A stretch of 38,978 nucleotides of DNA from a virus (lineage: Duplodnaviria > Heunggongvirae > Uroviricota > Caudoviricetes), in IMG/VR virus record IMGVR_UViG_2713896784_000029; one strand, given 5' to 3'. The position numbers and the translations under genes were made by a program. Every line of letters starts with the position of its first letter. The first letter of the stretch is position 1. Under the pieces are notes generated by a model, which had not been told where the DNA came from, did no database searches, and saw only the letters and a program-made list of their open reading frames with translations. Shown here in pieces: positions 972 to 38,606 of this stretch.

Positions 972-3062
972 ATGTATGTCATTGCAAAAGAACTGATTGG
1001 CGCGCCCGGAATGCCTGCTACAACAAAAGGTATTCGCCAGGCATTACAACGTTACGTACAAGGGAAAAGCTGTTGTTCCCGTCGTCGCTCAGGCTCTAAA
1101 GCAACTGAATACAGCATCGACTGTTTACCTGAAGTGACGCAGCAGGCATTACGTGAACGTTATGCCCTGCAACTGATGACGCAAAAAGCCGATGAATCAC
1201 CGGCTCCGGTGGTGACAAAGGCCAGACGCTCATCTGACGTGGTTGATGCGGTGGAGGCATATCGCGGATCACCACAACTGATGGTCGAACGCCTCAATGC
1301 CCTGACTGAAAACCAGCGCCAGGTGGCTGATGCACGAATCGCGATCGTCAGCGAAGTGATGAAAGTCGCGCAACAACCCGGTTTCAGCTGCGCGAAGGCT
1401 ATCCGGTTTATCGTTGACAACCTGGCACGTTCACAGCTGGACGAGCGCATTGTGGCAATGGTTGAGACGGCGAACGCCAAAAAGGGAAACAGCCGTGCGT
1501 TGAGTGAAATCACGCTGAAGCGATGGATTGCGGCCTTTAACAAGGCACAGAACGCCGCTGAACGCCTGCTTTTACTGGCACCGGGTAAACGCCAGGAAAT
1601 AAAAGCCGAAGATATTAACTGGCTGCCCGAATTTCTGGCGCAGTATCGCCAGTCAAACGGCCGACCAATGACCGAGGCTTACGAGGATTTTGTCGCTGAA
1701 TGGCAGCACCGGCACGCTGATGAGCCTTATATGCTCGATATCATGCCGTCTTATGACACCATTCGCCGCGCAATGAAGAAACTGCCGGAAGTGGTGAAAC
1801 AAAAAGGCCGGGTGACCGGCAGTGAATACCGCCAGCTTGAGGGATTCACGCGCCGCGACTGGTCCAGAATGCCGGTGAATTATGTCTGGATTGGTGACGG
1901 TCACGGCATGAAGCTGAAATGCGCACACCCGGTTCACGGTCGGCCATTTGCACCGGAAGTGACCTTTGTTATCGACGGTGGCACGCGCTTTGTGGTGGGC
2001 TGGAGCCTTGACCTGGCTGAAAATGTTTTCGCCGTAGCCGGTGCCATACAGCACGGCATTCGCCATCACGGCAAACCGTTTCTGTATTACTCGGATAACG
2101 GCTCCGGGGAAACCGCCGACATCCTGGATAAGGAGGTTGTGGGGATACTGCCGCGACTGGGGATTAATCACCCGACCGGGATTGCCGGTAATCCGCAGGG
2201 GCGAGGCATTATCGAACGGCTTAACCGCACATTACCGATGCGCATAGCCCGTAAATACCGCACCTATTTCGGGAAAGGTGCAGATCGCGAGACGTTACGC
2301 AAAACCAACCGCGATTTACGCTCGGCATTTACTGCCCTGCAACAGGGCAAACGGCTGAACGCCCGGCAGCAGTCAGCGATGCGTGATTTACCGTCCTGGT
2401 CTGAACTGATTGATGCCATTCGTGATGGTGTTGAGTGGTACAACAACCGGCCGCACGATGAATTACCGGTGAAGCCGAACGGCAAGCATTACAGCCCGGC
2501 GGAGTTCAGAAAAAAACGCCTGGCGGAAGAGGACACGGAAATTGAATGGCTGTCCGATGTGGAATTGCGGGACATGTTCCGGCCGATGGTGGAACGCCCT
2601 GTAAGACGCTGTGAAATACGCTGGCTGAATAATATTTACTACGCGCCCGAGCTGCGTGATGAGCATGGCCGCAAGGTGCTTATCAGCTATGACATTCATG
2701 ATGCCGAACGAATTACCGTACGTCGCCTGGATGGCAGCGTGATTTGCGAGGCGGTATGGGACGGTAATAAACGCGAAGCCTTCCCGGTTAGCGCGGAATA
2801 CTACAAACAGCAGCAACGCCTTAAAGGCATGCGTAAACGCGCAGAGGAAAAAATCCGTGATGCCGAGGATGAGGTTGTCAACGTGCTGGAGCACAAGCCG
2901 CAGGAGCCCTGGCTGGAAAACATCTATCGCCCGGTAGGTAATACGGTGGCCGTTCAGCAACCTGCCATTGATGATGAGCCTGATGAAGAATACGAGCGCA
3001 ATTTCCAGCGGGGATTGCAGTTGCTCGAAGCGAAATTAAAAGAAAATGACCCGCTGGCCTGA
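972..3062 (+). CDS. A: Mu-type DDE transposase A
   Basis: 696 aa; position after ner; candidate catalytic D-D-E in VWIGDGHGM, YYSDNGSGE, IIERLNRT; N-terminus resembles the MuA end/enhancer-binding domain. Confidence 0.9.
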   Translation: MYVIAKELIGAPGMPATTKGIRQALQRYVQGKSCCSRRRSGSKATEYSIDCLPEVTQQALRERYALQLMTQKADESPAPVVTKARRSSDVVDAVEAYRGSPQLMVERLNALTENQRQVADARIAIVSEVMKVAQQPGFSCAKAIRFIVDNLARSQLDERIVAMVETANAKKGNSRALSEITLKRWIAAFNKAQNAAERLLLLAPGKRQEIKAEDINWLPEFLAQYRQSNGRPMTEAYEDFVAEWQHRHADEPYMLDIMPSYDTIRRAMKKLPEVVKQKGRVTGSEYRQLEGFTRRDWSRMPVNYVWIGDGHGMKLKCAHPVHGRPFAPEVTFVIDGGTRFVVGWSLDLAENVFAVAGAIQHGIRHHGKPFLYYSDNGSGETADILDKEVVGILPRLGINHPTGIAGNPQGRGIIERLNRTLPMRIARKYRTYFGKGADRETLRKTNRDLRSAFTALQQGKRLNARQQSAMRDLPSWSELIDAIRDGVEWYNNRPHDELPVKPNGKHYSPAEFRKKRLAEEDTEIEWLSDVELRDMFRPMVERPVRRCEIRWLNNIYYAPELRDEHGRKVLISYDIHDAERITVRRLDGSVICEAVWDGNKREAFPVSAEYYKQQQRLKGMRKRAEEKIRDAEDEVVNVLEHKPQEPWLENIYRPVGNTVAVQQPAIDDEPDEEYERNFQRGLQLLEAKLKENDPLA

Positions 3063-3132: not shown

Positions 3133-4065
3133 ATGACTGATATTAACGATGTAATCAAGACCATTGATGAACTTATTGATGGCGGCGTACTGACGCAGTA
3201 TGCCATCGCCAGAGAGGCGGGAATTTCCGACGGCACATTATCGGCTTTCCGCAAGGGAAAATATAAAGGCGATAACGCTGCTGTGGCTGCTTCCCTGCGT
3301 TCCTGGTATGAGAACTGGAATAAACAAAGCGCACTGCCGGAACCGCCGCAGTTTGTGGAAACGCAGACAGTCCAGGAGCTGCGCGCACTGTTTCAGGCGG
3401 TTCGTCTGATGGGCTGTATTAACGTTATTGTGGGCGTACCGGGTGTGGGTAAAACGGCCACTGCCCGTAATTACTGCCAGGAGCAACCAAACACCTGGAT
3501 GATCACCCTGTCACCCGCGCACTCCAGCGTCACGGAGTGTCTGCTGGAGCTGGCCGATGCGCTGGGGATTGATTACACCCGCGCGAACAAAGGGGCATTA
3601 TCCCGCGCCATCCGCCGTCGCCTGATGGGAACGCGTGGACTGGTGATTGTGGATGAGGCGGATCATCTTGGTATTGACGGTCTGGAGCAACTCCGGGCAA
3701 TTCAGGACGCCACGGGGATCGGGATGGTGCTTATTGGTAACCCGCGCGGATTGTTTAAAGGTGGACGCCGCGCCTTTGATGATTTATCGCGCCTGTTCAG
3801 CCGTCTTGCCCGTACAAAACAACTTCGCAAGGCCAAAAAGGCGGATGTGCTGGCCATTGCCAGGGCATGGGGAATCAGTGGTGAGGCCGAGCTGGCCGTC
3901 ATGCAGGCTATCGCTGAAAAGCCGGGAGCGTTACGCGTTCTGACACATACGCTTAACCAGGCGTGGCTCACCGCCAGCGGTGAAGGCGCGGCGCTGACAG
4001 AAAAACATATTAATGCGGCCTTTAAAGAGGTTTATACCAACCCTGAATTACTCTCGCAGGTGTGA
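3133..4065 (+). CDS. B: transposition target-DNA activator B (AAA+ ATPase)
   Basis: 310 aa; Walker A GVPGVGKT, Walker B-like LVIVDEADHL; immediately downstream of A; RBS GAGAGG. Confidence 0.85.
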   Translation: MTDINDVIKTIDELIDGGVLTQYAIAREAGISDGTLSAFRKGKYKGDNAAVAASLRSWYENWNKQSALPEPPQFVETQTVQELRALFQAVRLMGCINVIVGVPGVGKTATARNYCQEQPNTWMITLSPAHSSVTECLLELADALGIDYTRANKGALSRAIRRRLMGTRGLVIVDEADHLGIDGLEQLRAIQDATGIGMVLIGNPRGLFKGGRRAFDDLSRLFSRLARTKQLRKAKKADVLAIARAWGISGEAELAVMQAIAEKPGALRVLTHTLNQAWLTASGEGAALTEKHINAAFKEVYTNPELLSQV

Positions 4066-5289: not shown

Positions 5290-5583
5290 ATGAGCAAAGT
5301 ACGCGTTATTTTTGAATTTGAGCATGTTTCGCATGACGAAAAACCGGCAGGCAATGACAGTGTTGAAGTGCATGAAAAGATTGGAGTGGATGTGAAAACA
5401 GAACGTGATACGGATAACAGGCCGACGTCACTCTGTGACGTTTATGCAAGCATTCTCCAGTATCACAGTCCTGTAATTATTCAGTTTCTCTCAGCGGAAT
5501 TTCAGGCATCTGTACAGGCTTTTGGGGCGGATGCCATCATTAAACGCCACCGTGTGCATAAAGCATCAGGCACACTGCAATAA
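5290..5583 (+). CDS. hypothetical early protein, tandem paralogue 2
   Basis: ATG 5290; N-terminus MSKVRVIFEFEHV parallels the upstream gene. Confidence 0.5.
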   Translation: MSKVRVIFEFEHVSHDEKPAGNDSVEVHEKIGVDVKTERDTDNRPTSLCDVYASILQYHSPVIIQFLSAEFQASVQAFGADAIIKRHRVHKASGTLQ

Positions 5584-5593
5584 GGAAAACAAA

Positions 5594-6124
5594 ATGGTTA
5601 AACGTGTTACAAAATTAAAGGCCGCAGCCGAGGCTGCACCGCAGACCCGCGAAGAAGTCAGCCGCGATATCCGCACCCTGGGCGATATTCAGCGAGAGGC
5701 GCTGCGCCTGGAAACGGCAATGAATGATGAAGTGGCAGAAATCACCGCCCGTTATACGCCGCAGATTGAAAACCTTAAAAAAGAAATCAAAGTGCTTTTT
5801 AAAGGGATTCATGACTGGTGTAAAACCAACCGCAATGAGCTGACGAACGGCGGCGAAACCAAAACTGCCAATCTGACCACCGGAACGGTGTCGTGGCGAC
5901 TGGGGAATCCATCATGCAGCGTCAGTCGTGATGTTGAAGGCGTGATTGAAATGCTGCGTCGTATGGGGCTTGAGCGCTTCATCCGCACGAAAGAGGAAGT
6001 GAATAAGCAAGCTGTCCTGGCAGAGCCGGATGCGGTGAAAGGGATTGCTGGTATTAAGGTGAATAAAGGCGCTGAAAGTTTTCATGTCGAGCCTTTTGAA
6101 CAGGACGTCGGACTGAATAAATAA
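5594..6124 (+). CDS. gam: Gam host-nuclease inhibitor (DNA-end binding, Ku-like)
   Basis: Translation from ATG 5594 (RBS AAGGAAAA); motifs IGDIQREALRLETAMNDEVAEIT, ELTNGGETKTANLTTGTVSWR and RFIRTKEEVNKQAVLAEP closely parallel Mu Gam. Confidence 0.85.
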   Translation: MVKRVTKLKAAAEAAPQTREEVSRDIRTLGDIQREALRLETAMNDEVAEITARYTPQIENLKKEIKVLFKGIHDWCKTNRNELTNGGETKTANLTTGTVSWRLGNPSCSVSRDVEGVIEMLRRMGLERFIRTKEEVNKQAVLAEPDAVKGIAGIKVNKGAESFHVEPFEQDVGLNK

Positions 6125-6208
6125 CACCGCATTAAATCTTTAAATATCACATCGTTTTAATTATGGCGCTTGCGTCAGGGGACTGCTCGCGCCTGAATGA
6201 GGCATATC

Positions 6209-6787
6209 ATGAGTATTAAATATCGTTATTTTAAAATGAATGAGCACGATTCCCGTCATTATCACCGGGAATGGCTTGATAGTGTTGGCAGGGAGCGCCA
6301 GAAATTGATTGATGATTTTCTCAGTAATCAGAATGCCAGAGGATATAGTTACTCCTGGTATTGTGGGGATTTTTTTGTCAAATCAATACTGGTGCATGAG
6401 GATGTTGATGTCGGAAGAAATAAACGGGTGTTGTCTGATAAATTTGATGAAGATGGCCGCGTTTTATTTTCAGTTAAGCCCGACCGCAGATTCAGAGAGG
6501 GAAAAAAACTGAACAAAGCACTGAATATCTTAAACGAGAAGTTAAAACAGCTTCCGTCATTCAGTACCTGGATGGTTAATAAACTGGACTGCTATTTTGA
6601 GGTTTTTGGTGTCAGCAACGGCCGCACAGTTATGGCGTGCTCTTCTGCCGGGTTCTATGGCGACAAAGGGGCTGTTGTGGTTCGTATTCCTGTCGGTGAA
6701 TCAGATAATGCCTTTTCACCTGAAAAGCTGCATCCGTCATTGATGGCAATCAAGCATTCCGAATTCATCGCAATAACGGAGGAATAA
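6209..6787 (+). CDS. hypothetical protein in AT-rich early insertion
   Basis: ORF in a visibly AT-rich stretch (about 6130-6560); ATG 6209 preferred (TGAGG RBS) over ORF-track start 6197. Confidence 0.45.
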   Translation: MSIKYRYFKMNEHDSRHYHREWLDSVGRERQKLIDDFLSNQNARGYSYSWYCGDFFVKSILVHEDVDVGRNKRVLSDKFDEDGRVLFSVKPDRRFREGKKLNKALNILNEKLKQLPSFSTWMVNKLDCYFEVFGVSNGRTVMACSSAGFYGDKGAVVVRIPVGESDNAFSPEKLHPSLMAIKHSEFIAITEE

Positions 6788-6790
6788 TTC

Positions 6791-7324
6791 ATGATTGATG
6801 CAAAAGTGCTTGAAGGGGTTAAAAACTGGCTGCGTATTTACGGACGTCTGACCTGCGGTGTTCTGGCTGAAAAAATGAATATGCCGCCATCCTCCATGGT
6901 TTATTTTCTGCGTGATGCGGTTGATGCAGGCGTGCTGACGGAATGTAACGGTTTTTATGATATTCCGCGTCCCCGCCCGGTGCAGCCGGTTCGTCGCAAA
7001 TGCAGCCAGGAATCTGCGGCTGATGATGTTCAGTGGTGCAGCTTCAGAAAATCCCTGCCGTGGATTGAAGGGCATGATATTCCGTCGATGGCGTGGGAAT
7101 TTGCTCAGGGCGTACTGACCTGCGAAACCGTTTATGTGGTGGCTGAAGTTGATGAGCAGGCCATGAAAGAAGGCGTGCCCCAGTTTGTGATGGCGTATAT
7201 CGACATCCGCCTGGGCGTCATTATCTGCGGTTTAAGCGGCTGGAATATCACCTCGCGCGTTCTGCGTTACCTGATTGTTGACCGGACGGCCGCGCCTGCC
7301 GGGATATCTGCGGAGGTGGCGTAA
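6791..7324 (+). CDS. hypothetical early protein
   Basis: 177-aa ORF tightly packed after previous gene; N-terminal 50 aa look like a winged-helix fold. Confidence 0.45.
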   Translation: MIDAKVLEGVKNWLRIYGRLTCGVLAEKMNMPPSSMVYFLRDAVDAGVLTECNGFYDIPRPRPVQPVRRKCSQESAADDVQWCSFRKSLPWIEGHDIPSMAWEFAQGVLTCETVYVVAEVDEQAMKEGVPQFVMAYIDIRLGVIICGLSGWNITSRVLRYLIVDRTAAPAGISAEVA

Positions 7325-7839
7325 TGTTCTTTAAAACATCAAACCCTTCCGCGCTGGCCGCGTGGCAAAAATATCAGCAGGACTGCCAGAAAGTTAAGGA
7401 TGAGGCAAAACGCCTTGAGGCCGTGCTGAATGTTGCGTGCCGATCGGTATTTGTATCCGGTATCAGTGGCTTTTGTTTTAAAGGGCTGCGCTTTATGGAT
7501 GACAAATATCCTTTTCATCGCGACTTATGGCGAAAACCGACTGCGTCGAATGGCTGGAGCTGCACACCGCGCACATCACGTATTCCCAAAGCCCTGCGCG
7601 TTGCCTCTGACGAACTTAACAGTCTGTGGCGTGAATATTCGCTCGTCACGTATGCCAGAACCGATGCCCTGTTGTTCTGGCTGGGCATTGACTTCTCAGC
7701 AATATTGCATGGTCCCGTGAAGTGGTTCTGCGTTGACGATGTGATTTATCTCCAGTGCGGCGTAAAACCCGCAAAACAGAGAATGACCGAAATTCTGCCT
7801 GATGAGTTTTATGCTGCCGAAAAGCGAGTCAGGGGGTGA
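7324..7839 (+). CDS. hypothetical early protein
   Basis: 171-aa ORF; start overlaps upstream stop. Confidence 0.45.
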   Translation: MFFKTSNPSALAAWQKYQQDCQKVKDEAKRLEAVLNVACRSVFVSGISGFCFKGLRFMDDKYPFHRDLWRKPTASNGWSCTPRTSRIPKALRVASDELNSLWREYSLVTYARTDALLFWLGIDFSAILHGPVKWFCVDDVIYLQCGVKPAKQRMTEILPDEFYAAEKRVRG

Positions 7840-7842
7840 TGT

Positions 7843-8394
7843 ATGATGATTTTACAACCCATGGGGCGAAAAGGCCGTGCACCCGCTCATGTTCGTGCAT
7901 GGACACCTGAAGAAGATGCGCTGCTGATTGCGCTTTATCCATCCACCCCGGTTAAGGATATTGCTGTCAGGGTAAAAAGAAGTTACTGGGGTGTATATAA
8001 CCGGATTGTTTTATTGCGCGGTACTTACCCGGAGTTGCTCAAATGCAAACGTCCCAGATTTAAACATGATGAAGATAAATTTATCCGAAAAAATGCCAGA
8101 ACAATGACCGGTAAGCAAATAGGAGAATATCTGGGGCGAGACCGGGACTCTGTCCACAATCGGGCGCGATATATTGGCGTAAGCATGAAAAAATACGGAG
8201 AGTTGCTGCCCTTCACCCGCATACCTGACGATGATGTTCGTCTTATTCGTGAATTACGGGATGCTGAATCACCACGGCGTCTTACCTTTAGGGAAATCGG
8301 CGAGAAATTTGAATTATCCGAGGGCACGGTGAGTTTTATTTATCACCGTCGTCGGACTGCCGAAGATGTTGTATTACGGGAGTTAATGCCATGA
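7843..8394 (+). CDS. hypothetical DNA-binding protein with three HTH-like repeats
   Basis: AGGGGG RBS; three internally similar ~50-aa segments each ending in a basic HTH-like helix (WGVYNRIVLLRG / VHNRARYIGV / VSFIYHRRR). Confidence 0.45.
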   Translation: MMILQPMGRKGRAPAHVRAWTPEEDALLIALYPSTPVKDIAVRVKRSYWGVYNRIVLLRGTYPELLKCKRPRFKHDEDKFIRKNARTMTGKQIGEYLGRDRDSVHNRARYIGVSMKKYGELLPFTRIPDDDVRLIRELRDAESPRRLTFREIGEKFELSEGTVSFIYHRRRTAEDVVLRELMP

Positions 8395-8723
8395 TAACGA
8401 CATTATTTGTTGAATCAGATGAACCCCTTGTGTGTGCCGCCGGAATGCCGGTCTGTGGCGGAACGCTGACCGGTGTTTATTTCGGGGATTTGCGCGGTTA
8501 TCCCTGGCATTCACTGAATGATGCTTTCCCGCCTGATATGGAGGCTGTCGTGCTGATTGTTCAGTATGGTCACAGGCAGGAACTGCGCATCGGCCATATG
8601 GGGTATGAAGGCTTTTTTATTGATGAAGAAACTGGAGCCTGCCTTGAAGATGAGGACGGACAGGTGACGCACTGGTGCCATATTTCAGCTTTACCGGAAT
8701 TACAGGAGACGCCCAATGGATGA
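8391..8723 (+). CDS. hypothetical early protein
   Basis: 110-aa ORF overlapping upstream stop (ATGA). Confidence 0.45.
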   Translation: MITTLFVESDEPLVCAAGMPVCGGTLTGVYFGDLRGYPWHSLNDAFPPDMEAVVLIVQYGHRQELRIGHMGYEGFFIDEETGACLEDEDGQVTHWCHISALPELQETPNG

Positions 8724-8856
8724 TCAAATAGTTGAATGTCCCACCTGTGGAAATGAAGCCCCGGAGTATCTGAAAGAGTGCCCACATTGTGGTGAGGTAA
8801 AATGTAATCACTGCGATATGGGCGACGACACTGCATGTATGAATTGTGAGGATTAA
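8716..8856 (+). CDS. small zinc-ribbon protein with four CxxC motifs (46 aa)
   Basis: Not in the supplied ORF track (under 60 aa). ATG 8716 after AGGAGA RBS; translation MDDQIVECPTCGNEAPEYLKECPHCGEVKCNHCDMGDDTACMNCED has CPTC, CPHC, CNHC, CMNC. Confidence 0.45.
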   Translation: MDDQIVECPTCGNEAPEYLKECPHCGEVKCNHCDMGDDTACMNCED

Positions 8857-8860
8857 TAAT

Positions 8861-9148
8861 ATGGAAAAAGAAATCAAATTTGCGCCTAAAGATATCGACG
8901 AAGAACTGGCTAAAATCGGCATGCTTGAGCGTATGCGGGACATTATCGAATATGCGATAAAAGAAAATCTTGCAGCCAGAGAAGCCCTTTTGATAATGGA
9001 GCGGGAGATTAACCTGATTAAGGATGCTGTATCTCTGGATAATAAAATAGCCCGCGAGGAATACGTTCGCCGCAGGCTCGGTGTTGATGGTTCAGCAATT
9101 CTTACATCTGAACATTATGCAAAAATCTTTAATCTTTTTTCGCGGTAA
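8861..9148 (+). CDS. hypothetical protein (AT-rich)
   Basis: ATG 8861 (MEKEIKFAPKD); helical, charged; 3' end overlaps a convergent minus-strand ORF by 20 bp. Confidence 0.45.
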   Translation: MEKEIKFAPKDIDEELAKIGMLERMRDIIEYAIKENLAAREALLIMEREINLIKDAVSLDNKIAREEYVRRRLGVDGSAILTSEHYAKIFNLFSR

Positions 9149-9368
9149 TGCCCATGCAGGCTCGGATATTGTCGAAATGCCAGTTTGTATTAATATATGA
9201 GCCATCCTGGTGTCCCTCTGCGCTTTGGGGTGCGGCACTTTTTTGAGCAATATTGATAATATGTGTTGCCTCCTCACGGGAAATAACCCCCTTATCGAAC
9301 AGGGTTACCATAAGATTTCCAGCCATTGTGAATGCGGCAACATCAAGGGCATTTTTTATATCTGACAT
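9129..9368 (-). CDS. hypothetical protein on opposite strand (AT-rich)
   Basis: 79-aa minus-strand ORF with RBS AAAAGGAAAAATCT-ATG; only convincing antisense-oriented gene in the early operon; AT-rich relative to flanks. Confidence 0.45.
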   Translation of the reverse strand: MSDIKNALDVAAFTMAGNLMVTLFDKGVISREEATHIINIAQKSAAPQSAEGHQDGSYINTNWHFDNIRACMGITAKKD

Positions 9369-9396
9369 AGATTTTTCCTTTTATGTTAATTGACAT

Positions 9397-9424
9397 GGCG
9401 GTGCGGTAACACCGCCCATTTTTT
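9397..9424 (+). terminator. intrinsic terminator-like hairpin upstream of gemA
   Basis: GGCGGTG-CGGTAA-CACCGCC stem-loop followed by CATTTTTTAT. Confidence 0.45.
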
Positions 9425-9438
9425 ATGGAGCCACGATA

Positions 9439-9951
9439 ATGAATCGCGCTTCCCTGATTACCTTAATACATGTCGCAAAACGCGATCTACAGCTTGACCG
9501 GGAGACCTATATATCCGCGCTGCTGGCAGCCACCGGCAAAACCAGCTGCCGGGATATGTCACCGGATGAGTTATCCCGCGTGCTGGATGTTTTCAAAAAA
9601 CGCGGTTTTAAAGTGCGCCAGAAGCCGGTTAACCGGGCCTTAAAACCGGGTACGGTGACCGCCAAAATTCGTGCCATCTGGAAGGTAATGCACCGGCAGG
9701 GCTTTATCTCTGATGGTGCGGAAACCGCCCTTAACCGCTGGGTGAAATCGCAGACGGCCGCGCAGAACGGCGGCGAAGGTGTGGCAAACTGGCAGTGGCT
9801 GGAGCAACACCCCGCCCTGGCCTCAGATGTGCTGGAGCGTCTCAAGCGATGGCACCGCCGCAAAATGCTGGCCGCGATGGGAATGCCCGAACGCACGCTG
9901 ATGGGGTATGACGCCGTTTGCAGGCAGTATGAAAAATCACTTCCCCGTTAA
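9439..9951 (+). CDS. gemA: GemA-like regulatory protein (Mu gp16 family)
   Basis: 170 aa; N-terminus LITLIHVAKRDLQLDRETYISAL fits the GemA/gp16 family pattern; position before Mor/C; GGAG RBS. Confidence 0.7.
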   Translation: MNRASLITLIHVAKRDLQLDRETYISALLAATGKTSCRDMSPDELSRVLDVFKKRGFKVRQKPVNRALKPGTVTAKIRAIWKVMHRQGFISDGAETALNRWVKSQTAAQNGGEGVANWQWLEQHPALASDVLERLKRWHRRKMLAAMGMPERTLMGYDAVCRQYEKSLPR

Positions 9952-9955
9952 CCCC

Positions 9956-9989
9956 AAATCCCGCCACAACGCGGGATTTTTATTTTAAA
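9956..9989 (+). terminator. intrinsic terminator after gemA
   Basis: 9-bp stem AAATCCCGC / GCGGGATTT with 6-nt loop, followed by TTATTTTAAA. Confidence 0.6.
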
Positions 9990-10020
9990 CTTACCGGGAA
10001 CGCGAGAACCGGAGGCTGAT

Positions 10021-10446
10021 ATGACAGAAACTCAGATGAGCATGTTTGGTGGTGACAGTGAGCAACTGCACGCCCTTATCGACCGCCTTGATGACATCCC
10101 TGATGATGTTCTCAAAAAGAACTGGCCGCGGACCCTGTCTGAACTGGTTGAAGTCACCGGCGCAGAACTTCAGCGTCAGGGGATTGAGCCGGTACTGGCC
10201 GGTAAACTGGCACGCAAGGTGGCTGCGGCTCAGGCAGCCTATATGGGCGGACGGGGTTATTACCTGCCGGTCGGGGAATCTCTCTTTGCCGAGCTGCGAA
10301 ACAATGAGATATTTTCGCGCTGGGACCGGGGCGAGAAAATTGAATCCCTTCGCCGCCATTACCGGATGTCAGAAACCCAGATTTATACCGTCATACGTGA
10401 ACAGCGCCGTCTGCATCTGGCAAGAACGCAACCGCCACTTTTCTGA
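10021..10446 (+). CDS. Mor/C-family transcription activator
   Basis: 141 aa; C-terminal HTH region (SETQIYTVIREQRRLHL) and overall layout like Mu Mor/C; sits between gemA and lysis genes; RBS GGAGG. Confidence 0.7.
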   Translation: MTETQMSMFGGDSEQLHALIDRLDDIPDDVLKKNWPRTLSELVEVTGAELQRQGIEPVLAGKLARKVAAAQAAYMGGRGYYLPVGESLFAELRNNEIFSRWDRGEKIESLRRHYRMSETQIYTVIREQRRLHLARTQPPLF

Positions 10447-10517
10447 TATTCCGCAAAGCCTGCCGCCTTTCCTTCACCGTTACGCTGACTCAGAGAACAT
10501 CATGAGACAGCGTAACA

Positions 10518-37714: not shown

Positions 37715-37915
37715 ATGTATCGAAACATACGGTGCCGACACTGCAATAAGCTACTGGCACGGGCCAGTTTCAGTTATCTGGAAGTAAAATGTCCGCGCTG
37801 TAAAACCCTCAATCAAATCACATCTCCGAGCGCCACAGAGCACCCCACATACACAAGGAAATCCTGTCGTGGGGAACAGAAAGCAAGTCACATCCCGAAT
37901 CATCAGCACGCCTGA
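37715..37915 (+). CDS. com: Com zinc-finger translational activator of mom
   Basis: [30 protein letters not shown] parallels Mu Com (IRCKNCNKLL...IRCPRCK); ORF overlaps the mom start as in Mu. Confidence 0.8.
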
Positions 37916-38606
37916 ACTTATTCGCTATAACGACAATATCGTTGGTTATGGCTCCCGTGAGTTGCGGGTTGAGACAATAAGTTGCTGGCTGGCCAGACTG
38001 GTCATCGTCAATAAACATTACAGCCACCGTTTCGTAAATAACTCCTACCTTCATCTGGGCATATTTTCAGAACGGGAACTTGTTGGCGTAATGCAATGGG
38101 GTTACGCCCTTAACCCAAACAGTGGTGCACGCGTCGTAACGGGTACGCAGAACCGAGAATATATGGAGCTTAACCGGCTATGGCTGCATGACTGTATGCC
38201 GAGAAACTCCGAATCAAGGGCAATCAGTTACGCGCTCAAGCTAATCAGGCAGCTTTATCCGCAGGTACAGTGGGTTCAGTCGTTTGCAGATGAGCGTTGT
38301 GGCTGTCTTGGTGTCGTGTATCAGGCAAGCAATTTTGATTATGTAGGCAGCCATGAATCAATATTCTATGAACTTGATGGCGAGTGGTATCACGAGATTT
38401 GCAGGAATGCCATTAAACGAGGCGGACAACGAGGTGAACATCTGAGGGCTAATATTGACAGAGCCAGTGTTCATAAGTTCCGACAGTTTCGTTACATCCG
38501 GTTTCTGAACAAGAGGGCCAGAAAACGCCTCAACACAAAGCTATTCAAAGTCCAGCCTTACCCAAAACCACAAACAGTTAAAACTGGTTTGAAAGAGAGT
38601 GAATGA
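37869..38606 (+). CDS. mom: Mom DNA-modification protein
   Basis: 245-aa ORF immediately downstream of and overlapping com, last gene before the right end, as in Mu; exact start uncertain. Confidence 0.7.

Follow-up and report, generated by a model that had tools for sequence, protein, structure and literature searches.

The DNA considered here, a stretch of 38,978 nucleotides that we will call the window (IMG/VR record IMGVR_UViG_2713896784_000029), is a complete Mu-like prophage, in which Pfam models identify the Mu transposase A (972-3062), MuB (3133-4065), Gam (5522-6124), the C-terminal domain of Gp11 (6791-7324), GemA (9439-9951), Mor (10021-10446) and Mom (37869-38606). Between Gp11 and GemA lies the gene that is the subject of this study, a plus-strand open reading frame that begins with ATG at 7843, ends at 8394 and encodes 183 amino acids (computed mass 21.6 kDa, computed pI 10.1). 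The original prediction had placed an early protein of this length here, and its coordinates are exact and the open reading frame is real: the product has 26 full-length homologues and falls into PHROG 323, and we describe it as a D5-like tandem-HTH protein.

A gp12-like ORF (7324-7839, plus strand; 53% identity to Mu gp12), which is always found directly 5' of the gene in Mu-like loci, has its stop codon at 7837-7839, and the ATG of our gene comes 3 nt past it. At the other end, the sequence ATGA at 8391-8394 joins the stop codon of the gene to the start codon of the next ORF, a 110-aa member of PHROG 6925 (8391-8723, plus strand) that is kept downstream in most Mu-like loci. The close spacing on one side and the overlap on the other indicate that the gene is embedded in the Mu-like early operon, within which it would be transcribed. 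A Shine-Dalgarno-like GGGGG (7832-7836, plus strand) can be read 6 nt 5' of the ATG, and its overlap with the end of the gp12-like ORF suggests translational coupling; we think that the gene is probably coupled translationally to its neighbours. A scan for sigma-70 promoters over positions 6000-10500, on both strands, returned no promoter-like site. Dinucleotide shuffles of the same region gave 6.2±2.4 sites, and promoter-like sequences seem to be depleted inside the early operon.

Some further features of this region deserve mention. The 110-aa ORF is followed on the plus strand by a 46-aa ORF for a mini zinc-ribbon protein (8716-8856; PHROG 5584, E=2.8e-27), which contains four CxxC pairs (MDDQIVECPTCGNEAPEYLKECPHCGEVKCNHCDMGDDTACMNCED) and overlaps both of its neighbours. 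Just before gemA, a 79-aa ORF without Pfam match runs on the minus strand (9129-9368), placed like the minus-strand gp15 of Mu, and gemA itself is flanked on either side by plus-strand terminator-like sites, each a GC-rich hairpin with a T-run (9397-9416 and 9956-9979). In Salmonella Mu-like relatives (L004, 7040-7987; L006, 2624-3700) the variable DNA that separates gemA from the D5-like gene holds a gene of the dATP/dGTP pyrophosphohydrolase family (PF04447) that is absent from the window. PADLOC defence models found no match among the neighbours of the gene, and gave for the gene product only a weak match to a homing endonuclease, so that we rejected its identification as a known defence gene.

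The gene is widespread in Escherichia coli. It is present in 229 of 5426 complete genomes (about 4%), O157 and other STEC strains included, and in 171 of the 230 matching E. coli records it is 95-99% identical to ours; in O157 strains RefSeq calls the product "DNA-binding protein". The 2-kb stretch from 7000 to 9000 shows 95-98% identity to Mu-like phages that reside within two Stx-converting phages. The best matches in the phage database (LC727895.1, 13347-15347; LC727881.1, 66479-68593) belong to Mu-like phages annotated inside Stx1a- and Stx2c-converting prophages; in both cases Shiga-toxin phages have been the landing site of a transposable phage. An intact Mu-like prophage, Sp18, is carried by O157 Sakai (PMC2669165).

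We built an AlphaFold2 model of the protein on the 26-sequence family alignment. It has a mean pLDDT of 82.7 and contains three separate three-helix bundles, at residues 22-59 (helices 22-31, 37-43 and 48-59), 75-110 (75-84, 90-97 and 101-110) and 129-169 (129-140, 149-156 and 160-169), followed by a last helix at 173-181. The low pTM (0.47) and the dips of confidence in the linkers indicate that the three are independent domains. In each unit an acidic first helix is followed by a short second helix, a turn of 3-4 residues and a third helix that is net basic or trailed by RRR, and the linkers are basic as well. The original prediction had described three units of about 50 residues, each ending in a basic helix, and had proposed structure prediction as a check; judged by the model and by the distribution of charge, this description is real at the level of the fold.

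Together with the alignment, the model divides the protein into five parts. The N-terminal tail (residues 1-19, 7843-7899, plus strand) has an entropy of 0.85 bits, with G11 and H16 invariant and P6 and P14 nearly so; its first ten or so residues are modelled as disordered, and it is possibly a DNA-contacting arm. Unit 1 (residues 20-59, 7900-8019, plus strand), delimited by alignment, profiles and model, is a Myb/SANT-like three-helix HTH that opens with the invariant W20-T-x-x-E-D. Unit 2 (residues 73-110, 8059-8172, plus strand), which emerges from hhalign with its shuffle control and from BLASTP, is a second HTH of this type and the counterpart of the first unit of Mu gp9. Unit 3 (residues 127-169, 8221-8349, plus strand), recognised by Pfam, alignment, hhalign, model and entropy, is a divergent HTH whose helices 1-2 (DxDVxLIRELRD ... 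LTFREIGEKF) are nearly invariant and whose recognition helix is highly variable. Last comes the conserved C-terminal helix (residues 173-181, 8359-8385, plus strand), seen in the alignment, the model and the entropy; the conserved residues here are E180 in the helix itself, R170, T172 and A173 immediately ahead of it and P183 as the final residue.

This contrast between parts can be put in numbers. Across 17 non-redundant orthologues the recognition helices of the three units are the most variable segments (1.67, 1.81 and 2.00 bits), helices 1 and 2 of unit 3 reach only 0.48 and 0.22 bits, and conservation is seen in the N-terminal tail and the C-terminal segment too. Variable recognition helices next to nearly invariant helices in unit 3 suggest DNA-reading surfaces that diverge from phage to phage and one surface that does not.

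Whether the three units are repeats of one another depends on how they are compared. Smith-Waterman alignment of the units within the single sequence gave z-scores of 0.7, 0.6 and 2.8 against shuffles, which is not significant (the pair formed by units 2 and 3 being marginal), and the repeat became detectable only with family profiles cut from the 26-member alignment. With these, hhalign relates units 1 and 2 at P=3.5e-13 over 40 aligned columns, units 2 and 3 at P=1.5e-4 and units 1 and 3 at P=6e-3. As a control we used 150 column-shuffled profiles per pair, which scored about 9.6±2 with maxima of 15-17.5, and for no pair did any of the 150 come up to the score of the real profiles. Units 1 and 2 exceed the controls by a very large margin (59.9 against a shuffle maximum of 15.4), units 2 and 3 by a clear one (23.7 against 17.5) and units 1 and 3 by a marginal one (16.9 against 16.3). 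At the DNA level only chance matches of 12-13 nt occur inside the gene, and this lack of a nucleotide repeat points to an old duplication. Units 1 and 2 are, by profile comparison, true sequence repeats that would go back to this old duplication, and unit 3 is a more divergent, related HTH of the same three-helix form. The claimed similarity between all three units is therefore clear by profile for the first two, but it is not significant in the single sequence and is distant for the third.

The protein scores below the gathering threshold of every Pfam model, and its sub-threshold matches are all to HTH families: Myb in unit 1 (PF00249 at 15.8 vs 24.4 bits, PF13921 at 16.9 vs 22.9 bits), and Sigma70_r4 and an AsnC-type HTH in unit 3; precomputed PF00249 matches are present on some homologues. 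The HTH character that had been predicted is borne out by the bundles of the model and by the profile repeat, but all Pfam HTH matches are sub-threshold. The likeness to Myb is closest for units 1 and 2, which share with the R2R3 region of c-Myb (PDB 1h88 and 1mse) the opening W-T-x-E-E-D, the three-helix HTH and the tandem arrangement, and the family profile aligns with 1h88 at E=4.9e-6, residues 18-106 matching Myb residues 60-150 with the two units in register. c-Myb has, however, three spaced tryptophans per repeat, of which our protein keeps the first only: W20 is invariant in unit 1, position 73 of unit 2 is F or W, and the later positions are aliphatic. Unit 3 is not Myb-like by sequence, and its profile found no solved structure below E=0.03 among PDB sequences.

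Two other identities were considered and rejected. The first is AsnC/Lrp: the HTH_AsnC-type model scores 21.3 vs 27 bits, there is no match to the RAM domain and the model is all-helical, and the name "AsnC family protein" that NCBI gives to most homologues is a misnomer, which has spread through more than 1500 sequences. The second is sigma-70 region 4, for which Sigma70_r4 scores 22.5 vs 24.1 bits and region 2 or 3 is not found; TIGR02937 gives 18.2 vs 42.9 bits, and NCBIfam assigns the protein to no family. The archaeal CRISPR-repeat-binding proteins Cbp1 and Cbp2 (PDB 2lvs; NCBIfam NF040595) resemble it in being small and basic and in consisting of HTH modules, two or three in number, that form imperfect tandem repeats, but NF040595 does not match our protein and the biological setting differs. 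The structure 2lvs is the top Foldseek match in the PDB, but at E=0.088 and TM 0.24-0.39 this is not significant (the sequence profile gives E=6e-4), and the whole model matches nothing in the PDB below E=0.088, probably because its three domains are flexibly linked.

The family assignment is firm at another level. The protein matches PHROG 323, "transcriptional regulator, D5-like", at E=1.5e-57, with residues 2-182 covering profile positions 80-256 of 319. Comparison of our family profile with D5 of phage T5 (T5.118, YP_006946) by hhalign gives a probability of 96.6% and E=6.5e-10 over 151 aligned columns that include all three units, residues 17-171 being collinear with D5 residues 71-232 at about 23% identity. 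Like our gene, T5 D5 is an early gene, situated among replication genes (between that for the ligase and those for helicase, primase and polymerase); unlike our protein, it has 255 residues, with an extra N-terminal region of about 70 residues, is rich in alanine and belongs to a virulent phage. Its GenBank note describes a DNA-binding protein that is required for replication and late transcription and has a role in early shut-off, a phenotype that is credited to McCorquodale 1979 in a passage of PMC12630848. This annotation suggests that our protein may have an analogous role, but with only about 23% identity the transfer of function from a virulent phage is weak.

Phage Mu itself has a relative of the protein. 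Residues 66-166, which comprise units 2 and 3, match Mu gp9 (E8, Mup09) in BLASTP with 32% identity at E=7e-10, and gp9 is also assigned to PHROG 323. Both genes belong to the semi-essential early region of transposable phages, but gp9 has only 99 residues and two units, lacks the N-terminal tail and unit 1, and is encoded upstream of gam, in Mu as in D108, SfMu and Yersinia Mu-like phages, whereas our gene comes after gp12. In the window neither a gp9 orthologue nor a second copy of our gene was found, and the gam-proximal slot holds unrelated ORFs; the slot after gp12 is variable, with our gene here and the unrelated gp13 and gp14 in Mu. With three units, a tail and a different slot, the protein is not the orthologue of gp9 but a paralogue-type relative. 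The family is one that had already been catalogued in phages, and our protein adds to it a three-unit member encoded in another slot. We searched the literature on Mu gp9/E8, on "D5-like" proteins and on PHROG 323 and found no functional work; the semi-essential early genes of Mu are called uncharacterised in publications (PMC8705779, PMC4406740).

The original prediction had also considered the tandem architecture to be unusual for a Mu early gene, and this we cannot maintain. Two units are present in gp9/E8 of Mu, D108 and SfMu, three units in the same order are present in T5 D5, and PHROG 323 already groups such proteins. An exhaustive profile search (E<=1e-3) moreover retrieved 12,871 representatives, in many of which 5-10 units stand in tandem. 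Among the best 150 of these, about 28 are matched in a single stretch and are mostly three-unit proteins of about 170-190 residues like ours, and the rest are longer, being arrays of the unit 1/2 type in which 2-10 stretches match profile positions of about 17-113; in the long proteins Pfam labels the repeats Myb-like. Some arrays (P0033, P0036, P0043, P0081) carry from 4 to more than 10 copies of a WTxEED...EIAxxLGRS...RA..LG unit; in P0033 nine repeats follow an N-terminal SF2 helicase, and P0036 consists of 762 residues of almost pure repeats.

A structure search of BFVD returned 20 phage proteins at E<1e-3, namely two- or three-HTH proteins and endonuclease fusions, and tblastn matched mycobacteriophage genes for HNH endonucleases and methylases at their N-terminal ends. 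In these endonucleases, methylases and multi-repeat proteins, modules of the unit 1/2 type, in two to more than ten copies, serve as a DNA-binding array; they differ from our protein in having catalytic domains or more repeats and in lacking unit 3 and the C-terminal helix. Judged from these alignments, the unit 1/2-type module is a common DNA-binding building block of phages.

By a word-indexed search we obtained 30 close homologues, from E. coli, Salmonella and Citrobacter, which are named either "AsnC family protein" or "SANT/Myb domain-containing protein". To see the gene in its context we surveyed 65 IMG/VR loci and 9 loci from assemblies, which fall into two classes. In about 45 Mu-like loci the order is always gp11, gp12 and the D5-like gene, usually followed by the 110-aa ORF. 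In about 20 P2-like loci, from Salmonella and relatives and also from Citrobacter phage Shae_phiSM, the order is Dam-type methyltransferase, D5-like gene, replication gene A, the D5-like gene always lying in the early operon, downstream of the Dam-type gene and upstream of gpA. Length and architecture are kept down to about 40% identity across the two phage lineages. Everywhere the gene is co-oriented with an early operon that adjoins replication or transposition genes, and early expression together with closeness to such genes are, as read from these loci, the constant features of its context. In the P2-like loci (L007-L011, L055-L075) a DUF4406 gene often stands between the MethyltransfD12 Dam methylase and the D5-like gene, and DUF4406 is also found upstream in two distant Mu-like loci (L072, L076); there may be a mobile cassette made of Dam, DUF4406 and D5-like genes.

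We think it likely that the protein is a D5-family tandem-HTH early protein that modulates phage DNA transactions, most likely in the early phase and at the level of transcription timing, of replication or of both, a role that we propose from the analogy to T5 D5. The results are best read as pointing to DNA binding or regulation, as originally predicted; we infer the DNA binding from homology, fold, charge and context, including the occurrence of related units in fusion with HNH endonucleases, methylases and a helicase, and the target site and the role are proposed on the same basis.

The mechanism that we have in mind is the following. The small, basic, all-helical protein would consist of three independently folded three-helix HTH modules on basic linkers, modules 1 and 2 derived from the old internal duplication of a Myb/SANT-like unit, and module 3 with the C-terminal helix forming a family-specific part common to Mu gp9. 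Binding to double-stranded DNA as a monomer, it would string its modules out like beads, each placing its recognition helix in one of a series of consecutive major grooves, in the manner of c-Myb R2R3 or of the bipartite paired/Tc3 domains, and its footprint would be long and asymmetric. Basic linkers, and possibly the N-terminal arm, would assist in this binding; through the variable recognition helices the target would differ from phage to phage, and a conserved function, structural or partner-binding, would fall to the N-terminal tail, the C-terminal helix and the nearly invariant face that helices 1-2 give module 3.

One may go further and imagine that D5/gp9-type proteins are general phage adaptors, whose three variable recognition helices read a DNA site specific to each phage while the nearly invariant face of unit 3 (DxDVxLIRELRD...LTFREIGEKF), the tail and the C-terminal helix recruit a conserved host machine, for example RNA polymerase or a replication factor, and which so time the early-to-late switch or the replication switch in temperate phages of the transposable and P2-like kinds, much as D5 would in T5. 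We consider this extension unlikely.

A competing hypothesis, to which we likewise give only a small chance, is that the protein is not a D5-type replication or late-switch factor at all but a sequence-specific transcription factor for genes of the host or of a co-resident prophage, acting as an accessory regulator or in lysogenic conversion or exclusion. Variable recognition helices on a conserved scaffold would suit such a regulator, and so would the location of the gene in a variable, semi-essential slot that is occupied in Mu by the unrelated gp13 and gp14, and its cassette-like movement between Mu-like and P2-like phages. However, the gene lies inside a lytic early operon and has no promoter-like site of its own, so that no expression would be expected in a repressed lysogen, and its P2-like loci show a tight linkage with replication gene A.

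It had further been suggested that the protein could be a host-factor mimic. In its most explicit form, this would mean that unit 3 imitates sigma-70 region 4 and docks on core RNA polymerase or on a sigma partner, the Myb-like units tethering this appropriated polymerase to phage DNA. We looked for support and found none, the sole hint being the sub-threshold Sigma70_r4 (E=8.4e-5) and Sigma70_r4_2 matches at residues 145-169 in unit 3, next to the weak match to TIGR02937. Near-invariance of helices 1-2 of unit 3 is indeed what a protein-protein surface would lead one to expect, and T5 D5 does affect early shut-off and late transcription, but all these profile matches are below their curated cut-offs and typical of cross-hits among HTH families, sigma factors appear among the Foldseek matches with E>0.2 and a TM of about 0.1-0.2, regions 2 and 3 are missing, and the unit 3 profile matches no sigma structure. 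We regard this explanation as improbable.

More improbable still is that the protein is a stand-alone remnant without function of its own, left over as a DNA-binding arm when a homing (HNH) endonuclease or methylase shed its catalytic domain, as might be thought from the tblastn matches to the N-terminal parts of mycobacteriophage HNH and methylase genes, the weak PADLOC homing-endonuclease match (E=0.004, residues 18-165) and the endonuclease fusions in BFVD, since two phage lineages have kept the length and architecture, the tail, unit 3 and the C-terminus all contain invariant residues, the gene persists in 229 complete E. coli genomes, and translational coupling in the operon and the free-standing T5 D5 and Mu gp9 argue for a selected function.

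To come back to the reading that we prefer, a D5-family early protein that modulates phage DNA transactions is not a new kind of system. The placement of the gene in the D5/gp9 family corrects the public name "AsnC family protein", and Mu-like phages are seen to carry two-unit or three-unit versions of such a protein in different slots. If the adaptor model were true, it would provide the first function for a gene of the D5/gp9 type in the Mu semi-essential region and would mean that tandem DNA reading in the style of Myb R2R3 is common in phages. The analysis leaves us with a testable hypothesis, that of a DNA binder with an extended footprint that would act on the timing of phage replication or transcription, and since the gene is present in about 4% of complete E. 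coli genomes, any function that it has would apply to many prophages.
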